NCBI GenBank assembly: GCA_030583685.1
Contig: CP129470.1
Location: 20,345 to 84,344, forward strand
DNA length: 64,000 nucleotides
Direction of reading: 5' to 3'
DNA from: Candidatus Dojkabacteria bacterium
GTDB lineage: Bacteria; Patescibacteriota; Dojkabacteria; GCA-002793355
Part shown: in pieces, positions 11,130 to 30,247 of the stretch
Layout of the letters: each line of letters starts with the position of its first letter
Position numbering within the stretch: the first letter of the stretch is position 1
The notes under the pieces: model-generated
The model's database searches: none
Told to the model about the DNA's origin: nothing
What the model saw: the letters and a program-made list of their open reading frames with translations, nothing else
Position numbers and translations under genes: made by a program

Positions 11130-13399
11130 GAATTCCATCACTAGACACATTCGACTTCCTCGCAATACTTCTGTGGATTGCCGTTTTACTTCCCGCTATT
11201 CAATTACCTTCCTCAGCAACGTTCACATTTCTGAGAAGTGTCTTCTTTATTGCTTGGGTCGCGCTGTTTGTACTGTATGTTGCGTTCAGAATCAATGCCG
11301 AGAAAAAGATTGTTTTTTATTCGGCAACAGCGGCTAATGGTTTAATGGCAGCGATAGCTGGTTCTTTCCTACTTTCATTTATACTGTCAGCCTCACCAAT
11401 TGATTCATTATATGGGTATGATCTTTCTTTCTCCTCAAGTTTCCTTGTGTTGATTTCACTGGTCGTATTCTATTTCACGTTGAAACTTGCTGGACTCTCT
11501 CTAGAATACTCAGTATCTCGAATTTTCTCAGTTCTTCCAATAACACTTGTTGCCATAGATTTGATTGCACTCGTGAGTTACCTCCTTCCACAAGGGTTTT
11601 ACACTGCAATCTTTGGTACATATGCCCAATATTTTAGTTTTTTTGCCAATTCACCCGCAGGATTACTTGGTGGCGTATCTCAATCATTGTTTCTCCACAT
11701 CATTGCCTTAGCGGTTGCACTCTGGCAAATTGCGACAGTCTACAAAAAAGGTGAGCCACTCTCACTTGGATTGTATCGACGAGCAGTTGTCGGCGGTTTC
11801 CTTCTATTGGTAACTGCGTATCTCCTGACAGTTTCGTTTACGTTCTCGATTCTTTCTGTTGCCGTGGCATTTGGCGTATTAGCGACCATTGCGTTCCTTA
11901 TTGTGTCCACAAATAACCCGAGAGTAAAGCAATTTGGCGTATTTGCGCTTATTTCTCTGGGTGTTGTTGCCATTATTACCTTTGCAACCCTTCAGCTTGG
12001 AACCTTCGGTACTGCTTCACAAGTTACCATTCCTTCACAAACCTCATCAACAATTATTCAGAATAGTTTCAGAAATCAAGGCGTACAACTATGGCGCTAT
12101 TTCACCGGGTATGGGGTAGGTACATTCCCGTATTTGTACCTACAACATCGTCCAATCGATGCAGCTATTAGATTTGGCAACGACACGTATTTCTTTAAAC
12201 CCGCAACCTTTGTTGGAGAACTCTTTATTGAACATGGTGTCATTGGAGTCCTTGTTCTGCTAGGCTTTCTGACCGCGTTAGTATTAGCTTACAAAGGTGC
12301 AAGCTCAAGAGCGATGATGACTCCAGAAGCTGTCATATTGCTCCTTGCTGTTGGATTCTTGCTTACCTCACCATCTTCGCTCGCCGTTCTCATCGTATTC
12401 TTTGCAGCAGCAGCGGCATTGCTTGATAAAGCAGAATCACTTCCTGAGCTCCTCCCGAGTGTGAGAGCAGTCGATGTAAAAGAATCAACGTACACAAATA
12501 AAGCGGTTGCAAAAACAGGTGTAGCACTCTTGACACTTTCTGTTGCGTACACGCTTTTTGTTGTGCTTTCACTTGTTCCCCCTACAGTTACCATGGCAGG
12601 ATATGCAAAATCATTACAACGATATGCCGTTGCCAAATTACAACTTTCGCAAGGTTCAACAGAATCGTCAAAAACCTTCATGGATGCATATGCACTTGCA
12701 AGTCGATATCGTCAGTATTGCGACAAATGTGCTCAGCTTCCCTATCTCAACCTTAGTACGCTGGTCGCAAGTACAGATCTGTATGCAGGATTAACCTTGG
12801 AACAGCGTAATGCATCAGCTGAGCTACGTGATATTCGAAATATGACACTACAAGGAATTACTGACTTGCTTGGTAAGAATACCATTCGATACGATTATTG
12901 GCTCACAATTTCTCAAGCGTATCAACTTATTGCAGAAGACGAAAAGAGTGCCAGCTTATACATTCTTGCACTACAAGGCGCGAGAAATGCACTTTCAGTT
13001 AACCCTTATTCTGTCGAAGCAAACTATCTCTTCTTAGATATGCTTCTGAAAACGGGAAACACACCAGAAATCAACACTCGTGTGAAAGAGACAGTCGCCT
13101 TGCTCAAACAACTGGTTGGTACACCGTATAGGATTCAGTTTACAGACGGAATCATTGCAGCAAGAGAGCAGAAGTATGACGAAGCAATTTCTCTTTTTGA
13201 AAAGATCAAAACTGAAGCACAAAATGCAGCAAATCTAAACGAGAATGACAAAAAACTTATTGTCTCACTTGCAGAACAGAGAATTGAAGAGGTAAAGAAA
13301 TTGAAGACGGGAACTCCTCAAACTGAGCAGTATACTACGCCGAGACCAACACAAACACCACGTCCAACACCGACCGTAACGCAACAATCTGAAAACTAA
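11099..13399 (+). CDS. Large polytopic membrane protein (about 12 TM; O-antigen-ligase/oligosaccharyltransferase-like topology) with C-terminal TPR-like repeats and a Pro/Thr-rich tail
   Basis: N-terminal 450 aa almost entirely hydrophobic helices; C-terminal helical repeats (AYQLIAEDEKSASLYILALQGARNAL...) resembling TPR; ends in TPRPTQTPRPTPTVTQQ. Confidence 0.5.
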   Translation: MAQQKKRFTLRIPSLDTFDFLAILLWIAVLLPAIQLPSSATFTFLRSVFFIAWVALFVLYVAFRINAEKKIVFYSATAANGLMAAIAGSFLLSFILSASPIDSLYGYDLSFSSSFLVLISLVVFYFTLKLAGLSLEYSVSRIFSVLPITLVAIDLIALVSYLLPQGFYTAIFGTYAQYFSFFANSPAGLLGGVSQSLFLHIIALAVALWQIATVYKKGEPLSLGLYRRAVVGGFLLLVTAYLLTVSFTFSILSVAVAFGVLATIAFLIVSTNNPRVKQFGVFALISLGVVAIITFATLQLGTFGTASQVTIPSQTSSTIIQNSFRNQGVQLWRYFTGYGVGTFPYLYLQHRPIDAAIRFGNDTYFFKPATFVGELFIEHGVIGVLVLLGFLTALVLAYKGASSRAMMTPEAVILLLAVGFLLTSPSSLAVLIVFFAAAAALLDKAESLPELLPSVRAVDVKESTYTNKAVAKTGVALLTLSVAYTLFVVLSLVPPTVTMAGYAKSLQRYAVAKLQLSQGSTESSKTFMDAYALASRYRQYCDKCAQLPYLNLSTLVASTDLYAGLTLEQRNASAELRDIRNMTLQGITDLLGKNTIRYDYWLTISQAYQLIAEDEKSASLYILALQGARNALSVNPYSVEANYLFLDMLLKTGNTPEINTRVKETVALLKQLVGTPYRIQFTDGIIAAREQKYDEAISLFEKIKTEAQNAANLNENDKKLIVSLAEQRIEEVKKLKTGTPQTEQYTTPRPTQTPRPTPTVTQQSEN

Positions 13400-16926: not shown

Positions 16927-16942
16927 TATCTCGATTTTCAAT

Positions 16943-17017
16943 CGGGGCGTAGTTCAGTTGGCTAGAACGCACGGTTTGGGACCGTGAGGTCGCGAGTTCG
17001 AGTCCCGCCGCCCCGAT
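16943..17017 (+). tRNA. tRNA-Pro (anticodon TGG)
   Basis: Acceptor CGGGGCG/CGCCCCG, D-arm GTTCAGTTGGCTAGAAC, anticodon stem-loop CACGG-TTTGGGA-CCGTG, T-loop TTCGAGT; 17 nt after tRNA-Leu. Confidence 0.85.
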
Positions 17018-17383
17018 TGAACAGTACGAGTTCTTCCGCAAGGTCACTAAAAGCCTTATACAATGGGCTGATTCCTAAGTTCGTAAGTTTCCCATTTTCA
17101 ATCTTTGGACAGTTCGTAAACATGTCCGCCAGTATCTCTCTACGCTGATCAATGGATTTAGTTGATTATGAGGAAGATGTTGAAGACTGGCAAATCCATT
17201 TAGTAAATTAATTTTCATAACCTTTGAGGGTTAGAAGGTAAAACCCTCAAAATTTGAGCAGTTGAAACTTACTTTCTTTATCTCTAGCCGAAATAAGAAA
17301 GTAAGCAAAGAAAGTTGGCTTTGTTTTTTACATTCTCTTTACAATAGAGTAAAATATTTCTATCTTATTTTGTTAGCACATAC

Positions 17384-17608
17384 TTGATGGATAAGAAAAG
17401 ATCCGATATCGGAAAGGCAATACAAAAAGTGAGGTTAGATAAGGGATTGACTCAAGAGGAATTATCTCGCAAGGCTGATATTCCATATACAACTCTTGCG
17501 AAAATCGAAAGCGGAATGGTTGTAAATCCTAGATTTAAAACCCTTCAAAAAATTGCAACTGCTTTGGAAGTTACAATTGATTATTTAATTAAGTTAGATG
17601 GTAAATAA
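17384..17608 (+). CDS. XRE/Cro-C1-family HTH transcriptional regulator (putative controller of the downstream R-M operon)
   Basis: LTQEELSRKADIPYTTLAKIESG HTH_3 motif; 74 aa; stop overlaps the hsdM start. Confidence 0.75.
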   Translation: MMDKKRSDIGKAIQKVRLDKGLTQEELSRKADIPYTTLAKIESGMVVNPRFKTLQKIATALEVTIDYLIKLDGK

Positions 17609-19358
17609 CATGGCAAAATCAAATCTACATTCAATTATTAGCTTTATTTGGTCTGTAGCAGATGATGTTCTGAGAGATCACTATAAAAAAGGTGAATATC
17701 CAAATGTAATTTTACCAATGACAGTAATAAGAAGAATTGACCTTTCTCTCGATGATACAAAAGCTGATGTCGTAAAGGCATACGAAGACTACAAAGACAA
17801 AATTATTAATCCTCAAGGTCTTCTTGAAAGTGCTTCAAAAAAGAAATACTACAACTACTCGAAATACACTCTTAAAACCCTTTTAAACGAACCAAAAAAC
17901 CTGAAAGAGAATACTCTTTCGTATTTAAACAGCTATTCCGATAATGTAAAAGACATCATCGAAAAGTTTGAGCTTAAGAATATTGTTGAAAAATGCAGTC
18001 GAGATGGAATACTTTTCTCATTAATTGAGAAGTTTGCAGATCCAAAAGTAGCTATTTCCCCTACCGAATTATCAAATCATGAAATGGGACATGTATTTGA
18101 AGATTTAATAAGGCGATTTAACGAAGAAAATAATGAGGAGGCAGGGGAACACTTCACTCCAAGAGAAGTTATTAAACTGATGAATCGAATTGTCTTTGAT
18201 CCTGTTAAAGACAAAATTAAGGATATCGGAACTATTCTTGTATATGATCCTGCATGTGGAACTGGTGGTATGCTTTCAGAATCCAAAGAATATCTGAAGG
18301 ACATTCTTAAATATGATGGTTTTATTCACTTATTTGGTCAAGAAGTAAATGATAAAACATATGCAACTTGTAAAGCAGACCTGCTTATTAAAGGTGAAGA
18401 TCCCGATGGTGTAGCTTTTGGTTCAACATTATCAAATGATGGTTTTCCTGATAAGAAGTTTGATTTTATGCTTACAAATCCTCCATATGGAAAAACTTGG
18501 AAAGACGATCAAAAGAAGCTATTAGTTGGCGATGGGAAGAAGAAACAAATTGTTGATAGTAGGTTTCAAATTGGTATCCCAAGAGTTTCCGATGGACAAC
18601 TATTGTTTGTCGAGCATATGCTTTCCAAAATGAAAACTGATACAGAACTAGGATCAAGAATAGCCTCTGTTCATAATGGCTCAGCTCTCTTTACTGGTGA
18701 TGCAGGACAAGGAGAAAGTGAGATTAGAAAATATTTGTTTGAAAATGATCTAATTGACGCAATTATTGCGCTCCATTCAGATATGTTTTACAACACAGGA
18801 ATACCGACTTATATCTTGTTAATAACTAACAAAAAGCATGAAAAAAGAGTAGGTAAAATTCAACTAATCAATGCTACATCAGAGGAATTTTATACAAACC
18901 TTAAAAAGACTTTAGGCCAAAAAAGAGTTGAAATTACGGATGCACAGATAAATAAAATCTATGAGATTTATACTAAATTTGAAAATTCTGAATTTTCAAA
19001 AATATTTTCTAATAAAGAGTTCGGATATACGCAAATAAAGGTGCACCAACCGAAGAAAGATGAAAAAGGAAATATTATTAGAAAGAAAATGGGAGGTGTC
19101 GAAATTGATAAAAGCTTAGAGGATATTGAAAATATCCCATTGAAAATGGATATTGATACATTCTTTAATGAAGAGGTTAAAAAATATTATCCTGATGCTT
19201 GGTATGAACCTGATGAATCAAAAATTGGATATGAAATAAACTTTAATAAATACTTTTATAAGTTTACTCCGCCTAGATCATCAGATGTAATTTTAAATGA
19301 GTTGAGAATACTTGATAAAGAAACAGACTCATTACTTAAGGAATTACTTAAAGATTAA
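17598..19358 (+). CDS. hsdM: Type I restriction-modification system N6-adenine DNA methyltransferase subunit
   Basis: Motif I (DPACGTGGML), catalytic motif IV NPPYG (MLTNPPYGKTW), N-terminal HsdM_N helical domain. Confidence 0.9.
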   Translation: MVNNMAKSNLHSIISFIWSVADDVLRDHYKKGEYPNVILPMTVIRRIDLSLDDTKADVVKAYEDYKDKIINPQGLLESASKKKYYNYSKYTLKTLLNEPKNLKENTLSYLNSYSDNVKDIIEKFELKNIVEKCSRDGILFSLIEKFADPKVAISPTELSNHEMGHVFEDLIRRFNEENNEEAGEHFTPREVIKLMNRIVFDPVKDKIKDIGTILVYDPACGTGGMLSESKEYLKDILKYDGFIHLFGQEVNDKTYATCKADLLIKGEDPDGVAFGSTLSNDGFPDKKFDFMLTNPPYGKTWKDDQKKLLVGDGKKKQIVDSRFQIGIPRVSDGQLLFVEHMLSKMKTDTELGSRIASVHNGSALFTGDAGQGESEIRKYLFENDLIDAIIALHSDMFYNTGIPTYILLITNKKHEKRVGKIQLINATSEEFYTNLKKTLGQKRVEITDAQINKIYEIYTKFENSEFSKIFSNKEFGYTQIKVHQPKKDEKGNIIRKKMGGVEIDKSLEDIENIPLKMDIDTFFNEEVKKYYPDAWYEPDESKIGYEINFNKYFYKFTPPRSSDVILNELRILDKETDSLLKELLKD

Positions 19359-20698
19359 TGAAAAAGTATAATAATTACAAGCAAACATTCGTGGATTGGA
19401 TTGGAGAGATACCAGAGCAATGGAAAGTAAAACCACTTATGGCTGTATTACAACAACGTAATGAAAAAAATGATCCTGTAAAAACAGAGCAGATTCTTTC
19501 GCTTTCAATCGCAGATGGTGTAACACTATATTCTCATATTGGTAGAGGAGGTAACAAGTCTAAAGGTGATTTGACTGCTTACAAGATAGCTCATGAGGGG
19601 GATATTGTTATGAATAGTATGAATGTTATTGTCGGAGCTGTAGGTCTCTCTAGATATTTTGGAGCAATTAGTCCAGTATATTATGCACTGTTCCCTAAAG
19701 ATGATTCGGTGGAAATTAAATTTTATGAGAATATCTTTAAAAGCAAAGCTTTTCAGAAATTTCTTATGGTATATGGCAAGGGTATACTTATCAAGAAAAG
19801 TGCCTCAGGAAAATTAAATACAATTAGAATGAAGGTCTCTTCAACCGATCTTAGGCGAACACTCCTACCAGTACCTGCGTACATAGAACAAGTAGCAATA
19901 GGACAAGCCCTTGATGAAGCCAACCGCAAGATTGATAAAGTAGTTGAAGGAAAACGTCAGTATATTAACCTCCTTAAAGAATATAAACAGTCAAAAATTA
20001 ATGAATTAGTAACAAAAGGTCTGAACCCAAATGTAAAGATGAAGGATAGTGGGATTGAGTGGTTAGGAGAAATTCCTGAACATTGGGACACCCTGAGACT
20101 CAAAACAATAATTAGTACTTCAAAAAATGGTATTTGGGGTGAAGATGTTAATCAAAATAAACACAATTATCCATGTATTAGAGTTGCAGATTTTGATTAT
20201 ACCCATTACTGTGTAAAAGATGAAATTCTAACATTACGTTCTTATGCTGACAAAGATATTGTGTATCTTATTGAAGAACCGTCTGTATTAATTGAGAAAT
20301 CTGGCGGAGGTGAAAAAATGCCTGTAGGAAGAATTGTTTATTATAACTCTTCAAAACCTTGCATGTGTTCCAATTTTATTTCAAGAATTAAAGTTAAAGA
20401 AGAAAAGGTGTTATTACAATATTTTGTATATTTTATGAGTGTTTTATATTCCAAGAGAGTAATTACAAAATCAATTAAGGCTACTACAGGCATTCAGAAC
20501 ATTGACGAGTATAGTCTTTTTGCCGAAAAAATACTTATACCTCCTGTAAATGAACAGTCTCAAATAGTTAACATAATTAAATCTGTTATTGGTAAATATG
20601 ATCAATTAGTTGAAAAAGCAGAGAAACAGATAGAATTAATTCAACAATATCGCCAATCACTAATATATGAATTAGTAACTGGTAAAAGAAAACCTTAA
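19358..20698 (+). CDS. hsdS: Type I restriction-modification system specificity subunit (two target-recognition domains)
   Basis: Two repeated TRD halves, each followed by a conserved coiled-coil spacer (LIELIQQYRQSLIYELVTGK at the C-terminus; similar central repeat). Start ATGA overlaps the hsdM stop. Confidence 0.8.
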   Translation: MKKYNNYKQTFVDWIGEIPEQWKVKPLMAVLQQRNEKNDPVKTEQILSLSIADGVTLYSHIGRGGNKSKGDLTAYKIAHEGDIVMNSMNVIVGAVGLSRYFGAISPVYYALFPKDDSVEIKFYENIFKSKAFQKFLMVYGKGILIKKSASGKLNTIRMKVSSTDLRRTLLPVPAYIEQVAIGQALDEANRKIDKVVEGKRQYINLLKEYKQSKINELVTKGLNPNVKMKDSGIEWLGEIPEHWDTLRLKTIISTSKNGIWGEDVNQNKHNYPCIRVADFDYTHYCVKDEILTLRSYADKDIVYLIEEPSVLIEKSGGGEKMPVGRIVYYNSSKPCMCSNFISRIKVKEEKVLLQYFVYFMSVLYSKRVITKSIKATTGIQNIDEYSLFAEKILIPPVNEQSQIVNIIKSVIGKYDQLVEKAEKQIELIQQYRQSLIYELVTGKRKP

Positions 20699-20715
20699 AT
20701 TATGAAATAATCAAT

Positions 20716-23697
20716 ATGAACGATCAAAACAATACATTAAATAAAAAAGAATCAGGGTTTGAAGATATTATTTTTGAATTTTTGACTCAATCACAATCTC
20801 CAAAGTATCGTGCAAGAGTAGATTCTGATTATGATAAAGCTAATTGTATTGATTTTGGTCTGCTTATTGAGTTTTTACAACAAACTCAACCTGAAAAGCT
20901 AGAAAAACTAAAGAATATTCACAAAGAACTGTTTGAACGAAATTTTTCCTATCGATTAAACCAACAGGTAAAACTTAAAGGTGTAATTGAAGTCTTAAGA
21001 AAAGGAATTGAAGATATGGGCGTACAATTTACTCTAATGTATCCTCACCCATCTTCCTCAAAGAATCCAAATTCTCAAGAACAATATGATCAAAACATAA
21101 CATCAATAATTAGGCAGGTACATTTTAGCCAACAATCAAATGAGTCTGTAGATTTAGTTCTTTTTGTTAATGGAATACCTGTATTAACTATTGAACTAAA
21201 GAACCCATTATCAGGACAGACTTATCAAGACGCCATATGGCAGTATAGAAATGATCGCTCACCAAAGGAAGAACTCTTTTCATTTACAAGATGTATGGTG
21301 CATTTTGCAATGGATAGTGAGCAGGTCTTTATGTGTACCAAATTAGATGGTGAAAAATCTGTGTTCTTGCCTTTCAATAAAGGAAATAACGAACAAGCAG
21401 GAAACCCTGATAACCCGAATGGTTATAGAACTTCATATATGTGGGAAGAAATATTCCAAAAGGATTCATTAATCAACATTATTGAAAGTTTTGCAAGTAA
21501 AGTGGTTGAGAAAGACGAGGATACAGGGAAAGAGAAAGTTAAACAAATTTTTCCAAGATATCACCAATTGAATTGTGTGAGAAATCTATTAACAGATGCT
21601 AAACAAAATGGTACTGGAAAAAGGTATTTAATTCAGCACTCAGCAGGTTCAGGAAAAAGTAATTCAATTACATGGTTAGCTCATCAATTGGTAGAGCTTC
21701 ATGATTCTACAAACGAGAACACTATTTTTGACAGCGTTATCGTTGTTACTGACAGAAAAGTCCTTGATCAACAGATTAGAAATAACATTAAACAATTTGC
21801 ACATGTAGATGGAGTTGTTGAGGCGATTACAGAAGGAAGTCAACATCTAAGAACTGCGTTAGAATCAGGTAAAAAAGTAATAATTACAACTGTTCAGAAA
21901 TTTCCTTATATTGTAAATGATATTGGGCAACTTCCTTCAAAGAAATTTGCATTGATTATTGATGAGGCTCATTCTTCTCAATCAGGGGAAACTTCAAGAA
22001 ATATTAGCATGACATTGGCTGATAAATCTTCTTTAGGGTATAACGAAGACCAACCTAAGAAAGATTTTGAAGATGAGCTTAATGAAATGGTAGTAAACAA
22101 AAAACTACTTCCAAATGCGAGTTATTTTGCCTTTACAGCAACTCCAAAAAATAAAACATTAGAACTATTTGGTGTTAAACAAACTGATGGCTCTTATAAA
22201 GCCTACCATGTGTATTCTATGCAACAAGCAATTCAAGAGAAATTTATTCTCGATGTTTTGCTTAACTATACGACATATCACACATATTACAGTTTGATTA
22301 AAAAGGTTGAAACAGATCCTGAATACGACAAAAAGGAAGCAAAAAAGATTATCTACAAATTTTTGCAATCTAACCCCGATACAATCGAAAAGAAAGCAAG
22401 AATTATGTTAGATCATTTCAGAAATAATTCTTTATACAAAATTGGAGGAAACGCTAAAGCTATGGTTGTCGCAGGTAGTCGTAAGAACGCAGTTGAATAT
22501 TATTATGCTTTCAATAAGGTATGTGAAGAATTGAATCTTCCTTTTAAGTCAATTGTAGCCTTTACAGGTGAAATAGATGGTTTAACAGAAGATAAGATTA
22601 ACGGATTTAGCATATCTTTGAGATCCGTTAAGAAGAAATTAGAAAATGAAAATACCTATAAATTCTTGATTGTTGCAGAAAAGTTTCAGACAGGATTCGA
22701 TGAACCCCTACTACACTCTATGTATGTAGATAGAATTCTTGCAGGAGTAACCGCAGTTCAAACCCTATCAAGATTGAATCGTGTTATGCCACCTCAAAAA
22801 ACAGATACTTTTGTACTAGATTTTGTTAATACTCACGAAGATATACAAACAGCATTTGAACCTTACTATAAAACAACTGTACTATCTGAAGGAACAGATC
22901 CCAATAAGCTTTTTGACCTCAAAGATGCGATTAAAGGATTCCAAATATTCACAGATGAGGAAGTTACTTCATATGTTATGAAATGTTTAGAAAAAAGATC
23001 CGTAGTTGAACTACACCCCATTATTGATAAAGCAGTTGAGAGATTTACTATTCTTGATGAAGAACATAAGTATGACTTGAAAGCGAAAGTAAAATCATTC
23101 ATTCGACTTTATGCTTATATTTCTCAAATAGCACCTTTTGAAAGTGTAGAACTAGAAAAGCTTTACATTTATCTTTCAGACCTTAATAAAAAACTTGTAA
23201 TAGATGTTAAAAAAGACCCTATTGACGATCTAATTAATGCGATAGACCTCGATTCAATCAGGGTTCAAAAAGAAACAGATGGTTCTATTGGGTTAAAGGG
23301 TGATGAACAGCTTCAACCAAACCCTTCAATAATGAGAGGGGGAAAGTTAAATGAAGAAAAAGACAGATTATCAAGGATTCTAGAGGAAATGAACGAGAGA
23401 TTCGGAGGAATTGATTTTAGCGATGGAGATAAAGTAAGAAAAACCTTTGGTGAGATTGCAGATGATGTTAGAAATGATCCTACATTTATGAAAGCAACGC
23501 TAAATGCCGATAGGCAAAATTCTTGGATAACATTTGAAAAACTCCTAAATGAAAAGTTCCAAAATATGATCAATGTGAACTTTAGTTTGTATAAAAAATA
23601 TTCTGACGATCCTGAGTTTAAAAAGTTTATGGCTGATAGATTGTTTGAGATGGTTTGGGGGCAGTCTAGCTCACAAGGGAGGGAAAGAAATAGTTAA
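20716..23697 (+). CDS. hsdR: Type I restriction enzyme R subunit (SF2 helicase/translocase plus N-terminal PD-(D/E)xK nuclease)
   Basis: Walker A HSAGSGKSNS, DEAH box LIIDEAHSSQ, helicase motifs III-VI (TATP, QTGFDEP, QTLSRLNR); N-terminal nuclease region with D...ELK pattern. Confidence 0.9.
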   Translation: MNDQNNTLNKKESGFEDIIFEFLTQSQSPKYRARVDSDYDKANCIDFGLLIEFLQQTQPEKLEKLKNIHKELFERNFSYRLNQQVKLKGVIEVLRKGIEDMGVQFTLMYPHPSSSKNPNSQEQYDQNITSIIRQVHFSQQSNESVDLVLFVNGIPVLTIELKNPLSGQTYQDAIWQYRNDRSPKEELFSFTRCMVHFAMDSEQVFMCTKLDGEKSVFLPFNKGNNEQAGNPDNPNGYRTSYMWEEIFQKDSLINIIESFASKVVEKDEDTGKEKVKQIFPRYHQLNCVRNLLTDAKQNGTGKRYLIQHSAGSGKSNSITWLAHQLVELHDSTNENTIFDSVIVVTDRKVLDQQIRNNIKQFAHVDGVVEAITEGSQHLRTALESGKKVIITTVQKFPYIVNDIGQLPSKKFALIIDEAHSSQSGETSRNISMTLADKSSLGYNEDQPKKDFEDELNEMVVNKKLLPNASYFAFTATPKNKTLELFGVKQTDGSYKAYHVYSMQQAIQEKFILDVLLNYTTYHTYYSLIKKVETDPEYDKKEAKKIIYKFLQSNPDTIEKKARIMLDHFRNNSLYKIGGNAKAMVVAGSRKNAVEYYYAFNKVCEELNLPFKSIVAFTGEIDGLTEDKINGFSISLRSVKKKLENENTYKFLIVAEKFQTGFDEPLLHSMYVDRILAGVTAVQTLSRLNRVMPPQKTDTFVLDFVNTHEDIQTAFEPYYKTTVLSEGTDPNKLFDLKDAIKGFQIFTDEEVTSYVMKCLEKRSVVELHPIIDKAVERFTILDEEHKYDLKAKVKSFIRLYAYISQIAPFESVELEKLYIYLSDLNKKLVIDVKKDPIDDLINAIDLDSIRVQKETDGSIGLKGDEQLQPNPSIMRGGKLNEEKDRLSRILEEMNERFGGIDFSDGDKVRKTFGEIADDVRNDPTFMKATLNADRQNSWITFEKLLNEKFQNMINVNFSLYKKYSDDPEFKKFMADRLFEMVWGQSSSQGRERNS

Positions 23698-23708
23698 TTA
23701 TTCTTATT

Positions 23709-26459
23709 ATGACAAAATACACAAGAGGTTCGGAATGGAGAAAGTGGGATTTACATATCCATACTCCATTCACAAAACTTAATGATCAATACAAAGTAAA
23801 TCAAGGGGAAGATGTATGGGATAAATACTGTGAGACAATAAAAAAGTCAGATGTAGAAGTCATCGGAATAACTGATTACTTTTCAATTGATAATTATTTA
23901 CTCTTTCTTGACAAATTTAAGAACAAGTACCCAAATAGTAACAAAAGATTTTTCCCTAACATTGAACTGCGATTAGAAGTTAGTGTCAATTCAACAAATG
24001 AAGAAGTAAATATCCATATAATATTCTCAAATAAGGTCAAGGAAAAAAAGATTAAAGATTTCCTAAGTAAACTTGAAACTAATAGAACAAAAAGCGGAGC
24101 CAATATTTTTTGTTCGGATCTTTCTTCGGAAGAGGATTACAAAAAGGCATGTATTGATTATAAAAAACTGAAGCCTACATTAAAAAAAGTATTTGGTAAT
24201 AATGAGTGCTACTTAATCGTTGCACCTGTAAACAATCAAGGATTACGACCAGATTCAAATTCTCCTCGTAAACTAATTACTTCAGACGAAATTGACAAGA
24301 TATGTGATTGCTTTTTTGGTAACAGTTCAAATGTCGACTACTTCTTAGATACTCAAAGATATGAGGCAGATAGTGATGGAAAGAAAGAGTTTTCCAAATC
24401 ATGTCCTGTTGTAACAGGGTCAGACGCACATTCGTTTGAGGATTTAGAGCTTAAGTTAGGCAAAAACTACCTAAAGAAAGATTCACAAGACAAAATATGT
24501 GATTCCTCAGAAATAACATGGATAAAAGCAAATCCTACATTCAATGGGTTAAAACAGATATTATATGAACCAATTGAAAGAGTAAAAATCCAAGAATTGA
24601 GACCCGATGACAAAGAAGACTACCAATTGATTGATAGTGTAAGCTTCATTGATGATAAGTTTACTAATCAATCCATATTACTTAGTAAAAACTTAACTGC
24701 AATTATTGGTGGTAAATCCACTGGTAAATCAATATTGCTTAGAAATATTGCAAAAACGATTGATCCTGATGAAGTCGCAAAGCGTTTGAATGAAGTTTCA
24801 ATGGAGGATTATGATAAACCGATTAATGACTTTAATGTTCTTTGGAATGATTCTCAAAATTTTTCTAAAGGGACAACTTCACAAACTCACAAGAAAATAA
24901 TCTACATTCCTCAATCTTACTTAAATAGATTAATTGATAAAAAAGAAGATAGATCAGCTATTGATGAAATCATTAAGAATGTATTGAATCAACAAGTGGA
25001 AGTTCAACAAGCTTTTGATGGCCTAAAAAAACGAACTAGAGAGATTGAACAATCAATATCTTCAAAAATTGAGCAGTTGTTTTTTACTATTAAAGACTTA
25101 TCAACTATAAAGGAAAAAATAAAAGAGATAGGAGATAAGAAAGGAATTGATACAGAAATTGAAAAACTGAAGATTGAAATCAATGAATTAAAAAAGGTCT
25201 CGAGCTTGTCCAAAACAGATTTGGAAGACTTTGATAAATACACAACTTCTTTAAAATCATTAAATATCAAAGCTTCTCAGATTGAGTATGATATAGATAG
25301 CTTAACGAAAGCTAAGGAAACAGTTCCTTTTGTATTTCCATTACTCGAGAATGTATCAAGCGACATTGCTGATACTTTAAGGGAAACATTTAATAACATA
25401 AAAGTTGAATTAGAACAAAAATATAATCAGGCTTTAGAAACAGAGTTAGGTAAAGCCAATAAGTCACAAGTTGCTACTAAAAAAGAAATTCTTGATATAT
25501 CTTCTAAAATTTTACCAATTCAGAAAAGGATTTCTGAATCGAAGGCTTTAGATGAAAAGATTAGAAAATTAACAGCAGAAGAAGAGAAATTAAAACTCAT
25601 TTCAGAACAAGAAATTAATTTTGAAAAAGTGAGGAAACTATTTGATAACATTATCGAAGAGTTAGTAAATACTCATCAAGATTATTATTCTGAAATCTTT
25701 AAAGCAAAGAATTTAATATTACAACAAAATATTATTAATGGAGAGCTTGAGTTTGATATAAATATTACATTTAAGAATGATAGCTTCCAAAAGCTATTTA
25801 TTGATGAGGTTTGTAATTTAAGAACTTTGACCCAATTTAACGAAGTTGAATTGAACAGTTATCAATTCAAAGATAGTGTTAAATTTAAGGATGAGGTAAA
25901 AAAGATTGTCTTAGGTTTTCTAAAAAAACATATACAATTAAAAAATAATTATACCCAAGCAGATGCAATAAGAAAGCTATTGCAGAATTGGTACATTTTT
26001 GACTTTAAGATAAAACAAAATGGTGATGATTTATCTACAATGTCGCCCGGGAAAAAGTCGTTTGTATTACTAAAACTATTAATCGAACTTGATAATAGCA
26101 AGTGTCCAATCCTATTAGACCAGCCAGAAGATGATCTAGATAATCGGTCAATATATTTTGATTTGGTTAGATTCATTAAAAGCAAGAAAAAAGAACGACA
26201 AATCATCATTGCTACGCATAATCCGAATTTAGTTGTTGGTGCTGATGCTGAGTGCGTTATTGTCGCAAATCAGGAAGGTATAGAAACTAAAAATCGCACA
26301 TATCAGTTTGAATATGTTCAAGGAAGTTTGGAATTCTCACAAAAAATTAAACCAAACCAACCAATACTATATAGTCGAGGTATTCAAGAACATGTTTGTG
26401 ATATTCTCGAAGGTGGACGAGAAGCTTTTGAGAATAGAAAAAATAAATATCATATTTAA
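23709..26459 (+). CDS. Fusion protein: N-terminal PHP-family phosphoesterase domain plus SMC/ABC-type ATPase (Walker A, long coiled-coil insert, Walker B/D-loop/H-loop). Candidate anti-phage effector
   Basis: PHP motifs WDLHIHT (HxH), IGITDY, NIELRLE, NIHIIF in the first roughly 110 aa; Walker A AIIGGKSTGKS about residue 330; roughly 350 aa of heptad-rich K/E/L sequence; C-terminal ILLDQPEDDLD (Walker B) and IIIATHNPNL (H-loop). Confidence 0.6.
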   Translation: MTKYTRGSEWRKWDLHIHTPFTKLNDQYKVNQGEDVWDKYCETIKKSDVEVIGITDYFSIDNYLLFLDKFKNKYPNSNKRFFPNIELRLEVSVNSTNEEVNIHIIFSNKVKEKKIKDFLSKLETNRTKSGANIFCSDLSSEEDYKKACIDYKKLKPTLKKVFGNNECYLIVAPVNNQGLRPDSNSPRKLITSDEIDKICDCFFGNSSNVDYFLDTQRYEADSDGKKEFSKSCPVVTGSDAHSFEDLELKLGKNYLKKDSQDKICDSSEITWIKANPTFNGLKQILYEPIERVKIQELRPDDKEDYQLIDSVSFIDDKFTNQSILLSKNLTAIIGGKSTGKSILLRNIAKTIDPDEVAKRLNEVSMEDYDKPINDFNVLWNDSQNFSKGTTSQTHKKIIYIPQSYLNRLIDKKEDRSAIDEIIKNVLNQQVEVQQAFDGLKKRTREIEQSISSKIEQLFFTIKDLSTIKEKIKEIGDKKGIDTEIEKLKIEINELKKVSSLSKTDLEDFDKYTTSLKSLNIKASQIEYDIDSLTKAKETVPFVFPLLENVSSDIADTLRETFNNIKVELEQKYNQALETELGKANKSQVATKKEILDISSKILPIQKRISESKALDEKIRKLTAEEEKLKLISEQEINFEKVRKLFDNIIEELVNTHQDYYSEIFKAKNLILQQNIINGELEFDINITFKNDSFQKLFIDEVCNLRTLTQFNEVELNSYQFKDSVKFKDEVKKIVLGFLKKHIQLKNNYTQADAIRKLLQNWYIFDFKIKQNGDDLSTMSPGKKSFVLLKLLIELDNSKCPILLDQPEDDLDNRSIYFDLVRFIKSKKKERQIIIATHNPNLVVGADAECVIVANQEGIETKNRTYQFEYVQGSLEFSQKIKPNQPILYSRGIQEHVCDILEGGREAFENRKNKYHI

Positions 26460-26471
26460 AAAGTCAATCTT

Positions 26472-27650
26472 ATGGTTAAATTCATACCAAAATTTAAAGA
26501 TCGTAGTCTATTAGACACAAACTGTAATGAGTTTATTGTTGACGCAGATGTAACAATTAAGAACAAGAATAGCTTTCAAGAGATAGCTACTCAAATCCCT
26601 AATTATGTTATAAACCCAGTTACTAGTCGATTTCCATATAGCTCAACAAAAACTAGTGAAAAATTGCCATATTTTTTTAGCAAAAATGAATTTGCTAAAA
26701 TTCTTTCGAATTCCTCAGAGAGACTTAAAAAGTTAATAATTCCTTGTGTTAAATTTTTACTAGAAACAAATTCCAAGAATGTAATACCCCCATATTTTTA
26801 TGCAGAAGACATTACATCTCAGACCTTTAATGTTAATCTTGAAAATATTGCAAATGTTATAAAGTTTAAGGAAAAAGAAAATGTTCAATTTAGTATCTAT
26901 CCAGTCATAAATGTTTCTTCAAATATTCTTACTAATGATAATTCTATTAGATATGTCGCCTCTATGTATATGTCTGATGAATATTACGAAAATATCTCTG
27001 GTTACTATATATTGATTGATGAGTTTGATGCAAATAAAGCAGATCCTTCAACATTAATTGGGTATTTAAAATTAATCAAAGCACTTTCCAAAAAGGAAGT
27101 ACACTTATTGAATATTAATTCATTCGGATACATTGGACTTTTAGCTGGTGCAACTAGCTTTTCTAGTGGATTAGCTAGTGGTGAAAGTAGCTCTGTAAAT
27201 AATTGGATTAGTGATGATAATCAAAATGCTCCAAGACAAAGACCTCCAAAGTTTATTTATGTACCCGAAATATTCTCATATATTGACGAAATAGAATTAC
27301 AGAAAGCAAATTACACTTGTAATTGCTCACATTGTAATGGGACTCTCCCAAGTACTACTATTTCAAAGAAAAAACATTTTCTTGCATGTAGACAAAGAGA
27401 TATCAAAAATAACTTCTCAGGCGAGTTTGATTCAGATTTATTAGCCTGGGAAAATGTCTTTTCGGAAGCCTTGTCGTATGCTAACAATTTATTAAGTTTG
27501 AAAAAAACAACACGATCATATAGCACATTAGTAACTCCGATTAATAAATGGAATAGTATCTTACCAGTTCTAAAAGACTTAAAAAGTTTAGAAGAAAATG
27601 AAGATCTATTAGCCCAAATTCTAAATGAAATTGATGAAACTAATGATTAG
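26472..27650 (+). CDS. Hypothetical 392-aa protein with a CxCxxC...H putative zinc site; partner of the PHP-ATPase
   Basis: Starts 12 nt after the upstream stop; motif CNCSHCNG...KKKHFLAC near residue 285; no other recognisable motif. Confidence 0.4.
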   Translation: MVKFIPKFKDRSLLDTNCNEFIVDADVTIKNKNSFQEIATQIPNYVINPVTSRFPYSSTKTSEKLPYFFSKNEFAKILSNSSERLKKLIIPCVKFLLETNSKNVIPPYFYAEDITSQTFNVNLENIANVIKFKEKENVQFSIYPVINVSSNILTNDNSIRYVASMYMSDEYYENISGYYILIDEFDANKADPSTLIGYLKLIKALSKKEVHLLNINSFGYIGLLAGATSFSSGLASGESSSVNNWISDDNQNAPRQRPPKFIYVPEIFSYIDEIELQKANYTCNCSHCNGTLPSTTISKKKHFLACRQRDIKNNFSGEFDSDLLAWENVFSEALSYANNLLSLKKTTRSYSTLVTPINKWNSILPVLKDLKSLEENEDLLAQILNEIDETND

Positions 27651-28083
27651 AATTGTCATTGATACAAATGTTGCATTATCGGGACTTCTTAGCTATACAT
27701 CTCCTGAACGCATGATAATTAATTATGCAATGCAAAAAAGAATTTCATTGATAGGTTCAAGAGAAACGTTTTCAGAATTCAAAGAAAAGGTTCTAGAAAA
27801 CAAACGATTTATCAAAGTAGCTAAGGATTTAATGTTTCCACAAAATCAGATCCTATCCCAATACAAGGCGTTAGTTAAGTTTGTTGAAATTGAGCAATCA
27901 TTAAAAGAATTACATTTTTGTGAACAAGATCCCGACGATGACATGTTTTTGCATGTAGCAATTCAATCTGGCACTAATATTCTAATAACAAACGATAATC
28001 ATCTCAGAAAATTAAAGAAAATCAATGAAATAAGAATAATTACACCAACAAAGTTCTTAGAAGTTATTAGAAAGCACTTTTAA
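27625..28083 (+). CDS. PIN-domain protein (predicted RNase/nuclease). Probable true start at the MIRIV Met around 27643, overlapping the upstream stop
   Basis: IRIVIDTNVALSGLL (Asp1), later acidic residues (E..D..ITNDNHL), length about 145 aa, typical of VapC-like PIN. Confidence 0.65.
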   Translation: MKLMKLMIRIVIDTNVALSGLLSYTSPERMIINYAMQKRISLIGSRETFSEFKEKVLENKRFIKVAKDLMFPQNQILSQYKALVKFVEIEQSLKELHFCEQDPDDDMFLHVAIQSGTNILITNDNHLRKLKKINEIRIITPTKFLEVIRKHF

Positions 28084-28734
28084 CATATCATTCCAAAAAT
28101 ACTCACATACATAGTTTTGTTTTGATGAAATGATTTCATCTTTTTGCTTTAATGGCCTGTGAATAAATTGTATTGTTCCATGTTTTAATGTTATGAGACC
28201 AGTATTTGACTTAATTAATTCATTAATAGGAACTAGATGTATTTTATTTGACGGTAAAGCTAAATATACTCTATTTGCAAAGGTTTTATAGCGAGAAGCT
28301 TGAACTAAGCCTCTTTTCCAATCAGAAAGTTTTGATTCAATAGCGATTATATTGTTAGATAGTGGTGCCCAGCCATTAACCTTTATGTAGAAATGTTTGT
28401 CGATTTCCTTTATGAAATGACCTTTAATTAACTGCTTAATTATACGACTTTTCAAATAGCCTTTTGACAATCCAACATAATTAATTATATCTTCGAATGA
28501 GGATGGTTTCTTACGATTTTCTGTTATTAATTCAAGTACCTTAAAATAATTCTCACTTTCTAATTCGTTAACCTGCATGTAATTTTCTCTTTTCCGAATT
28601 CTCTTGTAATTAATTTTTAATCCAACGATATCTGCGACACCATATCCCGAATCTACTTCTGTCTTAGTAATATACCCAGATAATGATAACTTTTCTGCAA
28701 TTGTTTTTGAAAATTCTAATTCTGTCATATCCAT
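28057..28734 (-). CDS. Hypothetical protein, possible wHTH plus PD-(D/E)xK-like nuclease fold; convergent with the PIN gene
   Basis: N-terminal helical segment, then a D-x(n)-E-S-K pattern (VADIVGL...IAIESKLSDWK). Weak, motif-level only. Confidence 0.3.
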   Translation of the reverse strand: MDMTELEFSKTIAEKLSLSGYITKTEVDSGYGVADIVGLKINYKRIRKRENYMQVNELESENYFKVLELITENRKKPSSFEDIINYVGLSKGYLKSRIIKQLIKGHFIKEIDKHFYIKVNGWAPLSNNIIAIESKLSDWKRGLVQASRYKTFANRVYLALPSNKIHLVPINELIKSNTGLITLKHGTIQFIHRPLKQKDEIISSKQNYVCEYFWNDMLKVLSNNF

Positions 28735-29010
28735 TATTATTTAGTATAGTCTTTTTTTAAAAACATGCAAAGTTTAATTTCTTGGTTTTCTCAGTAGAAG
28801 TAATAGCAAATATAGTGGAGAAAACAAAATCCACCCAATACACCCAAAACTTCCAAACCCACTATTTTTGTAGATTCTCTTTCCTTTTCCTCTTTTATAC
28901 ATCATAATAATTACAAGTTTAAATTAACATCGGAGTAATAAGCAAGGAATTTCCAACGATTTTGTAGCTCGGAAACAAACTGCAATACTTTGGAAAAAAG
29001 TTCGTAACGC

Positions 29011-29026
29011 GTCCCGCCGCCCCGAT
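29011..29026. repeat. Right-end att-like direct repeat of the tRNA-Pro 3' end (GTCCCGCCGCCCCGAT)
   Basis: Exact 16-nt match to 17002-17017; the upstream AGTTCG also echoes the tRNA T-arm. Confidence 0.6.
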
Positions 29027-29434: not shown

Positions 29435-30247
29435 ATGGCTATTTTTGTATATGCAGCGGGCGGAGTATCAGAAAGGTTTGGAGGAAAGGTAAAGGGGCTT
29501 ACACCAGTTGGTTCAAACAATGAAACACTTCTTGAAATATCGATGACTCAAGCGATTCAAGCAGGATGCACAGAGTTTATTTTTATCGTTGGAAAAAAAT
29601 CAGCACATGAAATTCAAGCTTTTTTTGGGAATGAATATAAGCAAATCCCCATTCGATATGCAATGCAAACGTTCGACGAAAAGGAACGAGATAAACCATG
29701 GGGTACCACAGATGCTCTTATTGCTGCCAAACCGTTGATTTCATCAAACTTTGTATTTCTTAACGCAGATGATATTTATGGTACTCACGCACTACGTACC
29801 CTTGTACAAAGCTTAAACTCATCACAAAATTGTTTACTTATCGGGTATTTGCTCGAAAACGTCCTTCCAGCAGACCAAAGCACCGCAAACAGAGCTATTG
29901 TTACGGAAGAGCAGGGCCTTGTTACAGACATCCAAGAAAACTTCCAGCTTTCACTGACAAACTATAAAAATCGTGGGTTAGACCGAAACTCAATTTGTGC
30001 ATTAAATTTATTTGGAATCACAAATAAAACACTTTCCCTCTTGGAAAAAGAGTTAGAGGAATTCAAGAAGCTACATCGAGGTAACCGTACTATAGAATGC
30101 TATCTCCCAAATTCGTTACAGAACCTCATATCAAAGAAGTTAATTCACATGACCGTCATAAAGACCTCAGACAAATGGTTTGGGATAACTAGTCCATCAG
30201 ATGTTCCACTACTTCGTAAGCAAATTGCGGAGAGGGAATCAAGCTAA
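29435..30247 (+). CDS. Sugar-phosphate nucleotidyltransferase (NTP_transferase family)
   Basis: N-terminal AAGGVSERFGG...K signature glycine-rich loop of the nucleotidyltransferase Rossmann fold; EFIFIVG. Confidence 0.65.
   Translation: MAIFVYAAGGVSERFGGKVKGLTPVGSNNETLLEISMTQAIQAGCTEFIFIVGKKSAHEIQAFFGNEYKQIPIRYAMQTFDEKERDKPWGTTDALIAAKPLISSNFVFLNADDIYGTHALRTLVQSLNSSQNCLLIGYLLENVLPADQSTANRAIVTEEQGLVTDIQENFQLSLTNYKNRGLDRNSICALNLFGITNKTLSLLEKELEEFKKLHRGNRTIECYLPNSLQNLISKKLIHMTVIKTSDKWFGITSPSDVPLLRKQIAERESS

Follow-up and report, generated by a model that had tools for sequence, protein, structure and literature searches.

A TrlF-family PHP–SMC-like ATPase, distantly related to the anti-phage protein Ppl, behind a type I restriction-modification operon in a Candidatus Dojkabacteria genomic island

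Introduction

What kind of protein is encoded directly behind a type I restriction-modification (R-M) operon in a bacterium of the Candidate Phyla Radiation (CPR), and what do its family and its setting say about a role in defence? The question is raised by a 64,000-nucleotide (nt) stretch of DNA from Candidatus Dojkabacteria bacterium (assembly GCA_030583685.1, contig CP129470.1, positions 20,345 to 84,344 of the forward strand), hereafter termed the window, in which all coordinates are counted from the first letter; its source is a single-contig assembly of 888,748 bp. The open reading frame (ORF) concerned corresponds, by exact-sequence look-up, to GenBank entry WKZ24034.1, which is labelled 'hypothetical protein':

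23709..26459, + strand: TrlF-family (Ppl-like) PHP nuclease–SMC-like ATPase ORF, 916 amino acids (aa), ATG start

An initial annotation, made from the DNA letters and their translations, had described this ORF as a phosphoesterase of the PHP type (polymerase and histidinol phosphatase) fused to an SMC/ABC-type ATPase, a single-chain SbcCD-like architecture and a candidate novel anti-phage effector. Its coordinates, strand, length and ATG start were all reproduced, the seven motifs that it quoted were all found, and structure models together with Foldseek searches agree that a PHP phosphoesterase and an SMC/Rad50-class ABC ATPase are joined in one chain. Taking the evidence below together, we consider it likely that the protein is a TrlF-family PHP–ABC/SMC-like ATPase, sister of the anti-phage protein Ppl, and is carried as defence-island cargo behind hsdMSR.

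Family assignment and distribution

The assignment is carried by the curated NCBIfam profile NF045780 (TrlF family AAA-like ATPase), which the window protein matches with 544.9 bits (E 5.9e-163), residues 6–915 aligning to positions 1–944 of the 944-position profile, against a curated equivalog cut-off of 350 bits. Weaker NCBIfam matches are Spaf_1101 (103 bits) and 'anti-phage protein Ppl' (NF042955; 68.7 bits, 2.6e-19, C-terminal half), the latter with an equivalog cut-off of 1000 bits, and the sole meaningful PADLOC match is also Ppl (PDLC02208; E 5e-15, residues 411–910 only). Direct BLASTP comparison with E. coli Ppl (WP_000233113, encoded on an IncF plasmid) gives 20% identity over the N-terminal 350 aa (E 3e-8) and 32% over the last 160 aa (E 4e-18); the elements HxH, D, E, H, GSDAH, W.K..P.F.GL and the P-loop stand in register, and SPG.K and LLDQPEDDLD are common to both proteins. 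On these sequence comparisons the window protein is a member of the TrlF family, a sister family of anti-phage Ppl, and a genuine but distant Ppl homologue. The initial annotation could not place the fusion and regarded it as candidate novel, a view that does not survive the passed NF045780 cut-off and the distant homology to Ppl at both ends; a match to a named system, which it had set beforehand as refuting novelty, is essentially what was found (TrlF; Ppl). The PHP–ATPase fusion is already known and named, as TrlF in NCBIfam and as Ppl since 2020.

General domain searches are less informative. Pfam did not match a PHP domain in the window protein, and its ABC_tran and AAA_21 matches fell below cut-offs. 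A sequence search of the PDB reached a best E-value of 0.05, and a profile of 42 sequences (the window protein and 41 full-length homologues with 39–76% identity to it, the alignment used throughout this work) found nothing there at E<=0.01. No solved structure of TrlF or Ppl was present in the PDB copy searched; E. coli Ppl as query retrieved Rad50/SMC heads only, its N-lobe matching Rad50 with E 1e-6.

The family is large and widely spread. A word-indexed search returned 3,652 proteins at E<=1e-5 among 8,000 candidates scored, and an exhaustive profile search 2,887 representatives (50% identity) at E<=1e-30, of which the best 150 measure 718–992 aa and are nearly all full-length matches. Species-representative genomes yielded 588 matches; the 80 loci kept from these belong to Patescibacteria, Bacteroidota, Bacillota, Planctomycetota, Pseudomonadota, Chloroflexota and others. 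Among plasmids, 1,114 records give some match, mostly conjugative ones, and 172 hold a full-length copy that PGAP annotates as TrlF family. Members of the family are common on conjugative plasmids of Klebsiella and E. coli as well as on those of lactococci.

Domain architecture

The following elements can be recognized within the gene:

23736..24593, + strand: PHP domain, aa 10–295, with HxH (H16, H18), D56, E86, H103, D239-x-H241 and the element TWIKA.PTF.GLKQI.YEP..RV (aa 270–292)
24708..24731, + strand: Walker A/P-loop GGKSTGKS, aa 334–341, invariant or at least 90% conserved
24996..25721, + strand: antiparallel coiled-coil insertion, aa 430–671, free of Cys, from AlphaFold2 secondary structure
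26040..26060, + strand: ABC signature-like MSPGKKS, aa 778–784, M778 and S779 invariant, P780–S784 at least 90% conserved
26109..26141, + strand: Walker B and D-loop ILLDQPEDDLD, aa 801–811, D804, Q805, P806, E807 and D808 invariant
26208..26225, + strand: H-loop IATHNP, aa 834–839, H837 and N838 invariant

Since Pfam gives no PHP match by sequence, the PHP assignment is based on the predicted structure and on the conservation of the motifs. A separate model of aa 1–300 was obtained with a predicted local distance difference test (pLDDT) score of 91.7 and a predicted template modelling (pTM) score of 0.91, and all of its top 28 Foldseek matches in the PDB are PHP-domain proteins; on this model, the N-terminal domain is to be placed in the nuclease-type PHP branch (EndoQ, Pol III alpha/PolC, RNase AM). 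The four motifs quoted in the initial annotation are present (WDLHIHT, aa 13–19; IGITDY, 52–57; NIELRLE, 84–90; NIHIIF, 101–106) and the fold that it proposed is the one modelled, but the extent of about 110 residues was too short: a fifth motif, GSDAHS, which it had missed, lies at aa 237–242, so that the domain covers approximately aa 10–295.

Within the 42-sequence alignment, D56, E86 and D239 are invariant, D14, H16, H18, H103 and H241 are at least 90% conserved, and the TWIKA-containing element is family-specific. Seven of the nine canonical PHP ligand positions are kept (H16, H18, D56, E86, H103, D239, H241), which falls short of the full set: Tyr57 (window 23877–23879) occupies the motif II His position in 40 of the 42 sequences, and the 'AH' His is missing around aa 170–175 in the clade of the window protein, whereas Ppl and the P. 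syringae TrlF retain it. The metal site of this clade may bind fewer ions than the three that are usual.

The full-length AlphaFold2 model, computed from the same alignment (mean pLDDT 86), comprises an N-terminal alpha/beta domain together with an ABC head built from aa ~305–429 and ~672–916, between which five predicted helices (430–474, 477–497, 502–537, 551–609 and 612–671; about 240 aa in total) form a coiled coil with its apex at approximately aa 538–550. When this model was compared with the PDB, Foldseek returned the heads of SMC, MukB, Wadjet JetC, Rad50, cohesin, Lamassu, RecN and RecF (E 4e-11 to 1e-5), with PARIS AriA also among the fold matches; the template modelling (TM) scores are low, 0.14–0.24 on the query, as expected of a multidomain query with a flexible arm. 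The Q-loop residue Q402 and the other ATPase motifs are invariant or at least 90% conserved. As modelled, the ATPase is of the SMC/Rad50 class, with an intact nucleotide-binding head and a short coiled coil. The initial annotation was right in seeing such a head split by a coiled coil, the length of which is ~240 aa rather than the ~350 aa that it gave. No Cys occurs between aa 265 and 701, and because the coiled coil is without Cys, the zinc hook (CxxC) of Rad50/SbcC is not present; with the hook cysteines missing and the arm short, 'single-chain SbcCD' holds as a loose analogy only.

A further feature of the head is that Gln805 sits at the position of the ABC catalytic Glu (D-Q-P-E, window 26118–26129, aa 804–807), and DQPEDDLD is common to the window protein, Ppl and the P. 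syringae TrlF (homologues in loci L099 and L100). This Walker B suggests a natural 'EQ-like' state, which would fit nucleotide sensing better than a motor function or fast hydrolysis.

A low-GC island at the 3' end of tRNA-Pro

The gene stands in a packed operon within an island whose left boundary and upstream genes are as follows:

16942..17017, + strand: tRNA-Pro(TGG), found by ARAGORN and Rfam
17002–17017, + strand: left direct-repeat copy (attL-like) GTCCCGCCGCCCCGAT, the last 16 nt of tRNA-Pro
17387..17602, + strand: putative XRE/HTH_3-type regulator, 71 aa, overlapping the hsdM start and heading the operon; recognized from its translation, with HTH_3 counterparts preceding hsdM in L081, L086 and L087
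17598..19358, + strand: hsdM, type I R-M methyltransferase (Pfam N6_Mtase 2e-58, HsdM_N; PADLOC MTase_I 1.6e-229)
19358..20698, + strand: hsdS, type I specificity subunit (Pfam Methylase_S; PADLOC Specificity_I 1.7e-98)
20716..23697, + strand: hsdR, type I restriction subunit (Pfam HSDR_N, ResIII, SWI2_SNF2, T1R_D3-like)
29011..29026, + strand: right direct-repeat copy (attR-like) GTCCCGCCGCCCCGAT, 16 nt

The + strand genes of the island are separated by gaps of 11–12 nt or overlap, and the trlF-like gene, being tightly packed only 11 nt behind the end of hsdR, is probably co-transcribed with the regulator gene and hsdM-hsdS-hsdR. The island as a whole is delimited by a sister strain (L096; MutL 99.7% identical), which is collinear with the window through 17017, the last base of tRNA-Pro, and again from 29008, and which lacks the 12-kb island including the trlF-like gene. 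The GC content of the island is 27–34%, compared with 40–45% in the flanks. The trlF-like gene is the cargo of a horizontally acquired low-GC island at the 3' end of tRNA-Pro, and its location directly downstream of hsdR in a tRNA island, as first described, is confirmed by coordinates, synteny break, repeats and GC content.

A Pfam scan of the island (17018–29007) that covered all ORFs of at least 80 aa except two short ones antisense within trlF detected no integrase or recombinase, and the island may be immobilized or mobilized in trans. A scan for promoters and terminators gave no more sites than in shuffled sequence, and Rfam reported nothing beyond five tRNAs.

Two observations concern the sister strain. 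At 12065–12273 of L096, two copies of the tRNA-Pro-end repeat lie ~160 bp apart in the absence of the island, which may be the remnant of an earlier insertion or excision. In the same strain, the nucleotidyltransferase homologous to window 29435–30247 appears disrupted, with 194 aa versus 270 aa.

Genomic neighbourhoods of relatives

All nine of the closest relatives that could be placed on contigs (48–97% identity) lie beside or inside R-M operons of type I, type III or a type II-like kind, in the following gene orders:

P0001, P0002, P0004, P0012: M-S-R-TrlF
P0019: M-S-TrlF-Fic-R
P0021: M-TrlF-...-R
P0016: type III mod-TrlF-res
P0018: mod-res-DUF2779-TrlF
P0003: TrlF-methylase-unknown

The hsdR stop and the TrlF start are 1 nt apart at the P0004 locus and overlap by 4 nt at the P0012 locus, and in three cases TrlF is inserted inside the R-M operon, between hsdS and hsdR (L091), hsdM and hsdR (L092), or type III mod and res (L089). 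The HsdR proteins beside P0001 and P0002 are 98% and 92% identical to that of the window, whereas those adjoining the other relatives are only 22–26% identical to it while their TrlF proteins are ~50% identical; this difference implies that TrlF came to lie beside unrelated R-M systems on repeated occasions and that the two did not descend together as a single operon. We found no description of this recurrent embedding in the searchable literature, and the pattern suggests, at the level of gene order, a functional coupling between TrlF and restriction.

In the wider family, R-M genes (type I, type III or beta-class methylase-type) occur within 6 kb of TrlF at no fewer than 21 of 77 more distant loci, a seed-based lower bound. 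The commonest Pfam families among 131 immediate neighbours are R-M components (ResIII, Methylase_S, Eco57I, N6_Mtase, N6_N4_Mtase, C-5 and D12 methylases, the EcoO109I and CfrBI nucleases, and MmeI) and recombinases of both the serine and tyrosine types. All-against-all BLAST of the neighbours revealed no conserved partner gene, the top cluster occurring at no more than eight of 80 loci; without an obligate partner, the gene behaves as a self-contained unit. Other defence genes also adjoin it. In a SAR324 metagenome-assembled genome that holds the best match in the genome collection, the gene directly upstream of TrlF is that of BREX BrxA (L001 619–1323); on the Klebsiella IncFII plasmid pKP29105-2 (L094 3253–10969), TrlF stands between a Gabija-like pair (ATP-binding protein and UvrD helicase) and an Abi-family gene; on a Lactococcus plasmid, it directly follows a DUF2130 gene, downstream of an Eco57I-type R-M gene and close to one for AbiQ/ToxN; and on a Companilactobacillus plasmid, it adjoins a divergent type I R-M system. 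The settings of the homologues are those of defence and mobile elements and not of housekeeping, in agreement with the defence context that the initial annotation had proposed.

Several smaller recurrences were also seen at these loci. The arrangement of Gabija-like pair, TrlF and Abi gene, near ccdAB, is found on many Klebsiella plasmids. A DUF2779 gene lies directly beside TrlF in two independent R-M-linked loci (L087 12756–14156, − strand; L090 6501–7991, + strand), and RhuM or RhuM-Fic genes lie beside TrlF in R-M operons of type III (L089 7808–7984) and type I (L091 10776–11771). At L086 6214–9999, where TrlF is 55% identical, the HsdR immediately upstream of it has an SLFN/AlbA_2 domain at its C-terminus; this domain also occurs in TrlG, the partner of archetypal TrlF.

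Proposed function and alternative explanations

The functional model is taken from Ppl (Gao et al. 2020), which consists of one gene encoding 'an ATPase domain and a PHP domain' and restricts T7 and Bas63 (PMC11482910). In a 2026 review (PMC12904381), Ppl is described as a 3'-5' exonuclease on single-stranded DNA that needs 3'-OH ends and relief of inhibition by nucleoside triphosphates (NTPs) at the PHP and NTPase domains; the primary reference cited for this mechanism is Xu et al., Mol Cell 2026, and NTP-sensing regulation has been described for both Gabija and Ppl. By homology to Ppl, the PHP domain of the window protein would be a metal-dependent DNA (3'-5' exo)nuclease that a nucleotide bound at the ATPase head keeps inactive, and that would be released on invader DNA with free 3'-OH ends once NTP pools drop. 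In the R-M-linked clade, judging from gene order, the adjacent restriction enzyme might supply these ends, and TrlF would turn the break into irreversible degradation.

Several points weigh against this interpretation. Identity to Ppl is only 20–32% and local, and the Ppl profile score of 68.7 bits is far from its cut-off of 1000; two canonical ligands present in Ppl are missing, so that the metal site, and possibly the chemistry, may differ. The linkage to R-M genes is frequent but not universal across the wider family, and it is gene order alone that points to a coupling with restriction. No phage-blocking test of any TrlF-family member was found in the searchable literature, and neither a review of lactococcal Abi systems nor a paper on S. 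thermophilus defence loci mentions a TrlF-type protein. In the one locus from which TrlF takes its name, growth arrest was mapped to another gene, TrlG, and not to TrlF (PMC7554251). We regard the more specific idea, that TrlF of the R-M-linked clade is a functional restriction accessory (an end-processing PHP exonuclease, or a sensor of blocked R-M) rather than a free-standing system, as tentative and on balance doubtful.

The main rival to the supply of ends by restriction is that TrlF guards the restriction system in the manner of PrrC or PARIS, sensing the inhibition of R-M or an anti-restriction protein and then unleashing its PHP nuclease, either as a back-up defence or as part of an abortive response. 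The insertion of the gene inside R-M operons at L091, L092 and L089 mirrors the position of prrC, which sits within the prr locus, and the re-creation of the adjacency with unrelated R-M systems (HsdR ~22–26% and TrlF ~50% identical) would fit as well. In PARIS, coiled-coil ABC ATPases sense phage proteins, and AriA is among the fold matches of the window protein. Against this, many members of the family lack R-M genes in the surrounding 6 kb or lie beside other systems, and Ppl acts by itself as a single gene (PMC11482910). Gene order does not distinguish the guarding of restriction from the supply of ends, and we consider the former rather improbable.

A second alternative is a growth-arrest or addiction module that stabilizes the island or answers stress, as proposed for the temperature-restriction locus (TRL) of Photorhabdus. 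The family is indeed named from the trlR-trlF-trlG operon of Photorhabdus laumondii, which stops growth at 36 °C and in which TrlF is annotated as a histidinol phosphatase (PMC7554251); a small putative helix-turn-helix regulator heads the window operon too, and members of the family are common on conjugative plasmids, where toxin-antitoxin genes lie next to them. The TRL phenotype was nevertheless traced to TrlG, with no TrlF mutation found (PMC7554251), and TrlG (AlbA_2 plus HATPase_c_4) was not found in the island by Pfam or NCBIfam, these domains being undetected in orf392, the PIN protein and orf225 (described below). TrlG-type partners were seen only beside distant TrlF proteins; the TrlG-linked TrlF of a P. 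syringae plasmid, with a downstream 'RNA-binding domain-containing protein', is only 21% identical to the window protein and lacks the final His of the DxH motif. A TRL-like growth-arrest role without TrlG is unlikely, and we give this explanation little credence.

Finally, housekeeping double-strand-break repair by a single-chain replacement of SbcCD/Mre11-Rad50 in a reduced CPR genome, although supported by the fusion of a nuclease to a Rad50/SMC-like head with a coiled coil and by the Rad50 match of the Ppl N-lobe, is very improbable in view of the low-GC island, the patchy spread over phyla and plasmids, the lack of a zinc hook and the defence and mobility neighbours, and it was rejected because the gene is missing from the near-identical sister strain.

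The orf392, PIN and orf225 genes

Downstream of the trlF-like gene, the island carries three further genes:

26472..27650, + strand: orf392, orphan island cargo, with no Pfam, NCBIfam or PADLOC match
27625..28083, + strand: PIN_3 domain protein, 152 aa (Pfam PIN_3 5e-15; TIGR00305 2.5e-16)
28057..28734, − strand: orf225, convergent third member of the trio, with no family match in Pfam, NCBIfam or PADLOC

The initial annotation had envisaged a three-gene module in which TrlF, orf392 and the PIN protein act together. The three lie on one strand and are tightly packed, with a 12-nt gap followed by a 26-nt overlap, and a 97%-identical relative also has orf392 downstream. The wider distributions contradict such a unit: orf392 and PIN are not downstream of a 76%-identical TrlF (L082), neither gene was found at any of the 80 genome loci, and a 36-kb contig (L101 8001–10251) carries homologues of orf392 (55%), PIN_3 (58%) and the convergent orf225 (58%) without TrlF, directly behind a different, unrelated type I R-M system. 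Because the distributions are independent, orf392, PIN_3 and orf225 form a separate cargo module rather than part of a TrlF unit, and joint action with TrlF has next to no plausibility. In a collection of 5.8 billion sequences, orf392 is represented by five cluster representatives, the window protein and four relatives. The trio may be a PIN-toxin-based defence or toxin-antitoxin module linked to R-M systems.

Novelty and significance

What may be new here is the family member from a CPR bacterium, the reduced PHP ligand set of its clade and the recurrent embedding in R-M operons. The annotation of WKZ24034.1 can be corrected from 'hypothetical protein' to a TrlF-family, Ppl-like nuclease–ATPase, and this adds a CPR bacterium, its assembly measuring ~0.89 Mb, to the carriers of such a defence-type protein. 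The occurrence of ~50%-identical TrlF proteins beside HsdR proteins of ~22–26% identity hints at a cooperation between cleavage by restriction enzymes and a PHP exonuclease. If TrlF did process the ends of type I or type III breaks, this would be of particular value to reduced genomes, from which RecBCD-type nucleases may be missing; and if TrlF of this clade were an accessory of restriction enzymes, its repeated capture beside unrelated R-M systems would point to a defence architecture of a general kind, 'restriction plus processor', that is not yet described.

Comparison with known systems

Known systems resemble the window protein to different degrees. PrrC and RloC share with it the position of an accessory effector gene inside or directly behind hsd operons; they are anticodon nucleases acting on tRNA, whereas the window effector is a PHP domain with no homology to anticodon nucleases. 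Gabija GajA/OLD and PARIS AriA likewise join a nuclease to a nucleotide-binding module of ABC type, but their nuclease is TOPRIM, while that of the window protein is PHP and N-terminal; TOPRIM, GajA and AriA/AriB families were absent from the Pfam, NCBIfam and PADLOC results, and PADLOC gave no Gabija or PARIS match. With SbcCD/Mre11-Rad50 the window protein shares an SMC/Rad50-class ABC head into which an antiparallel coiled coil is inserted, combined with a phosphoesterase that is metal-dependent and acts on DNA. Unlike that complex, the window protein has its nuclease fused in cis and of the PHP rather than the calcineurin-like fold, its arm is ~240 aa without a zinc hook, and its gene is mobile and strain-variable instead of housekeeping; the Pfam scan of neighbouring genes showed no SbcD-type (calcineurin-like) domain. 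The nuclease-type PHP domains of EndoQ, Pol III alpha/PolC and RNase AM are 11–18% identical, and none of them is fused to an ABC ATPase.

The nearest counterparts are the TrlF archetype and Ppl. Photorhabdus TrlF belongs to the same curated family (NF045780) and has the same architecture, and its operon is also headed by a small transcription-factor gene; it differs in being paired with TrlG and in standing outside an R-M operon. Ppl has all canonical PHP His ligands (ASH, SDH, AHID), in contrast to the window clade with Tyr57 and no 'AH' His, and is a lone gene, whereas the window gene is packed in a type I R-M operon. Both Ppl and the window protein are nonetheless single chains of ~890 aa that run from PHP domain through Walker A lobe and helical insertion to a C-terminal head lobe, and both occur in defence islands and on plasmids.

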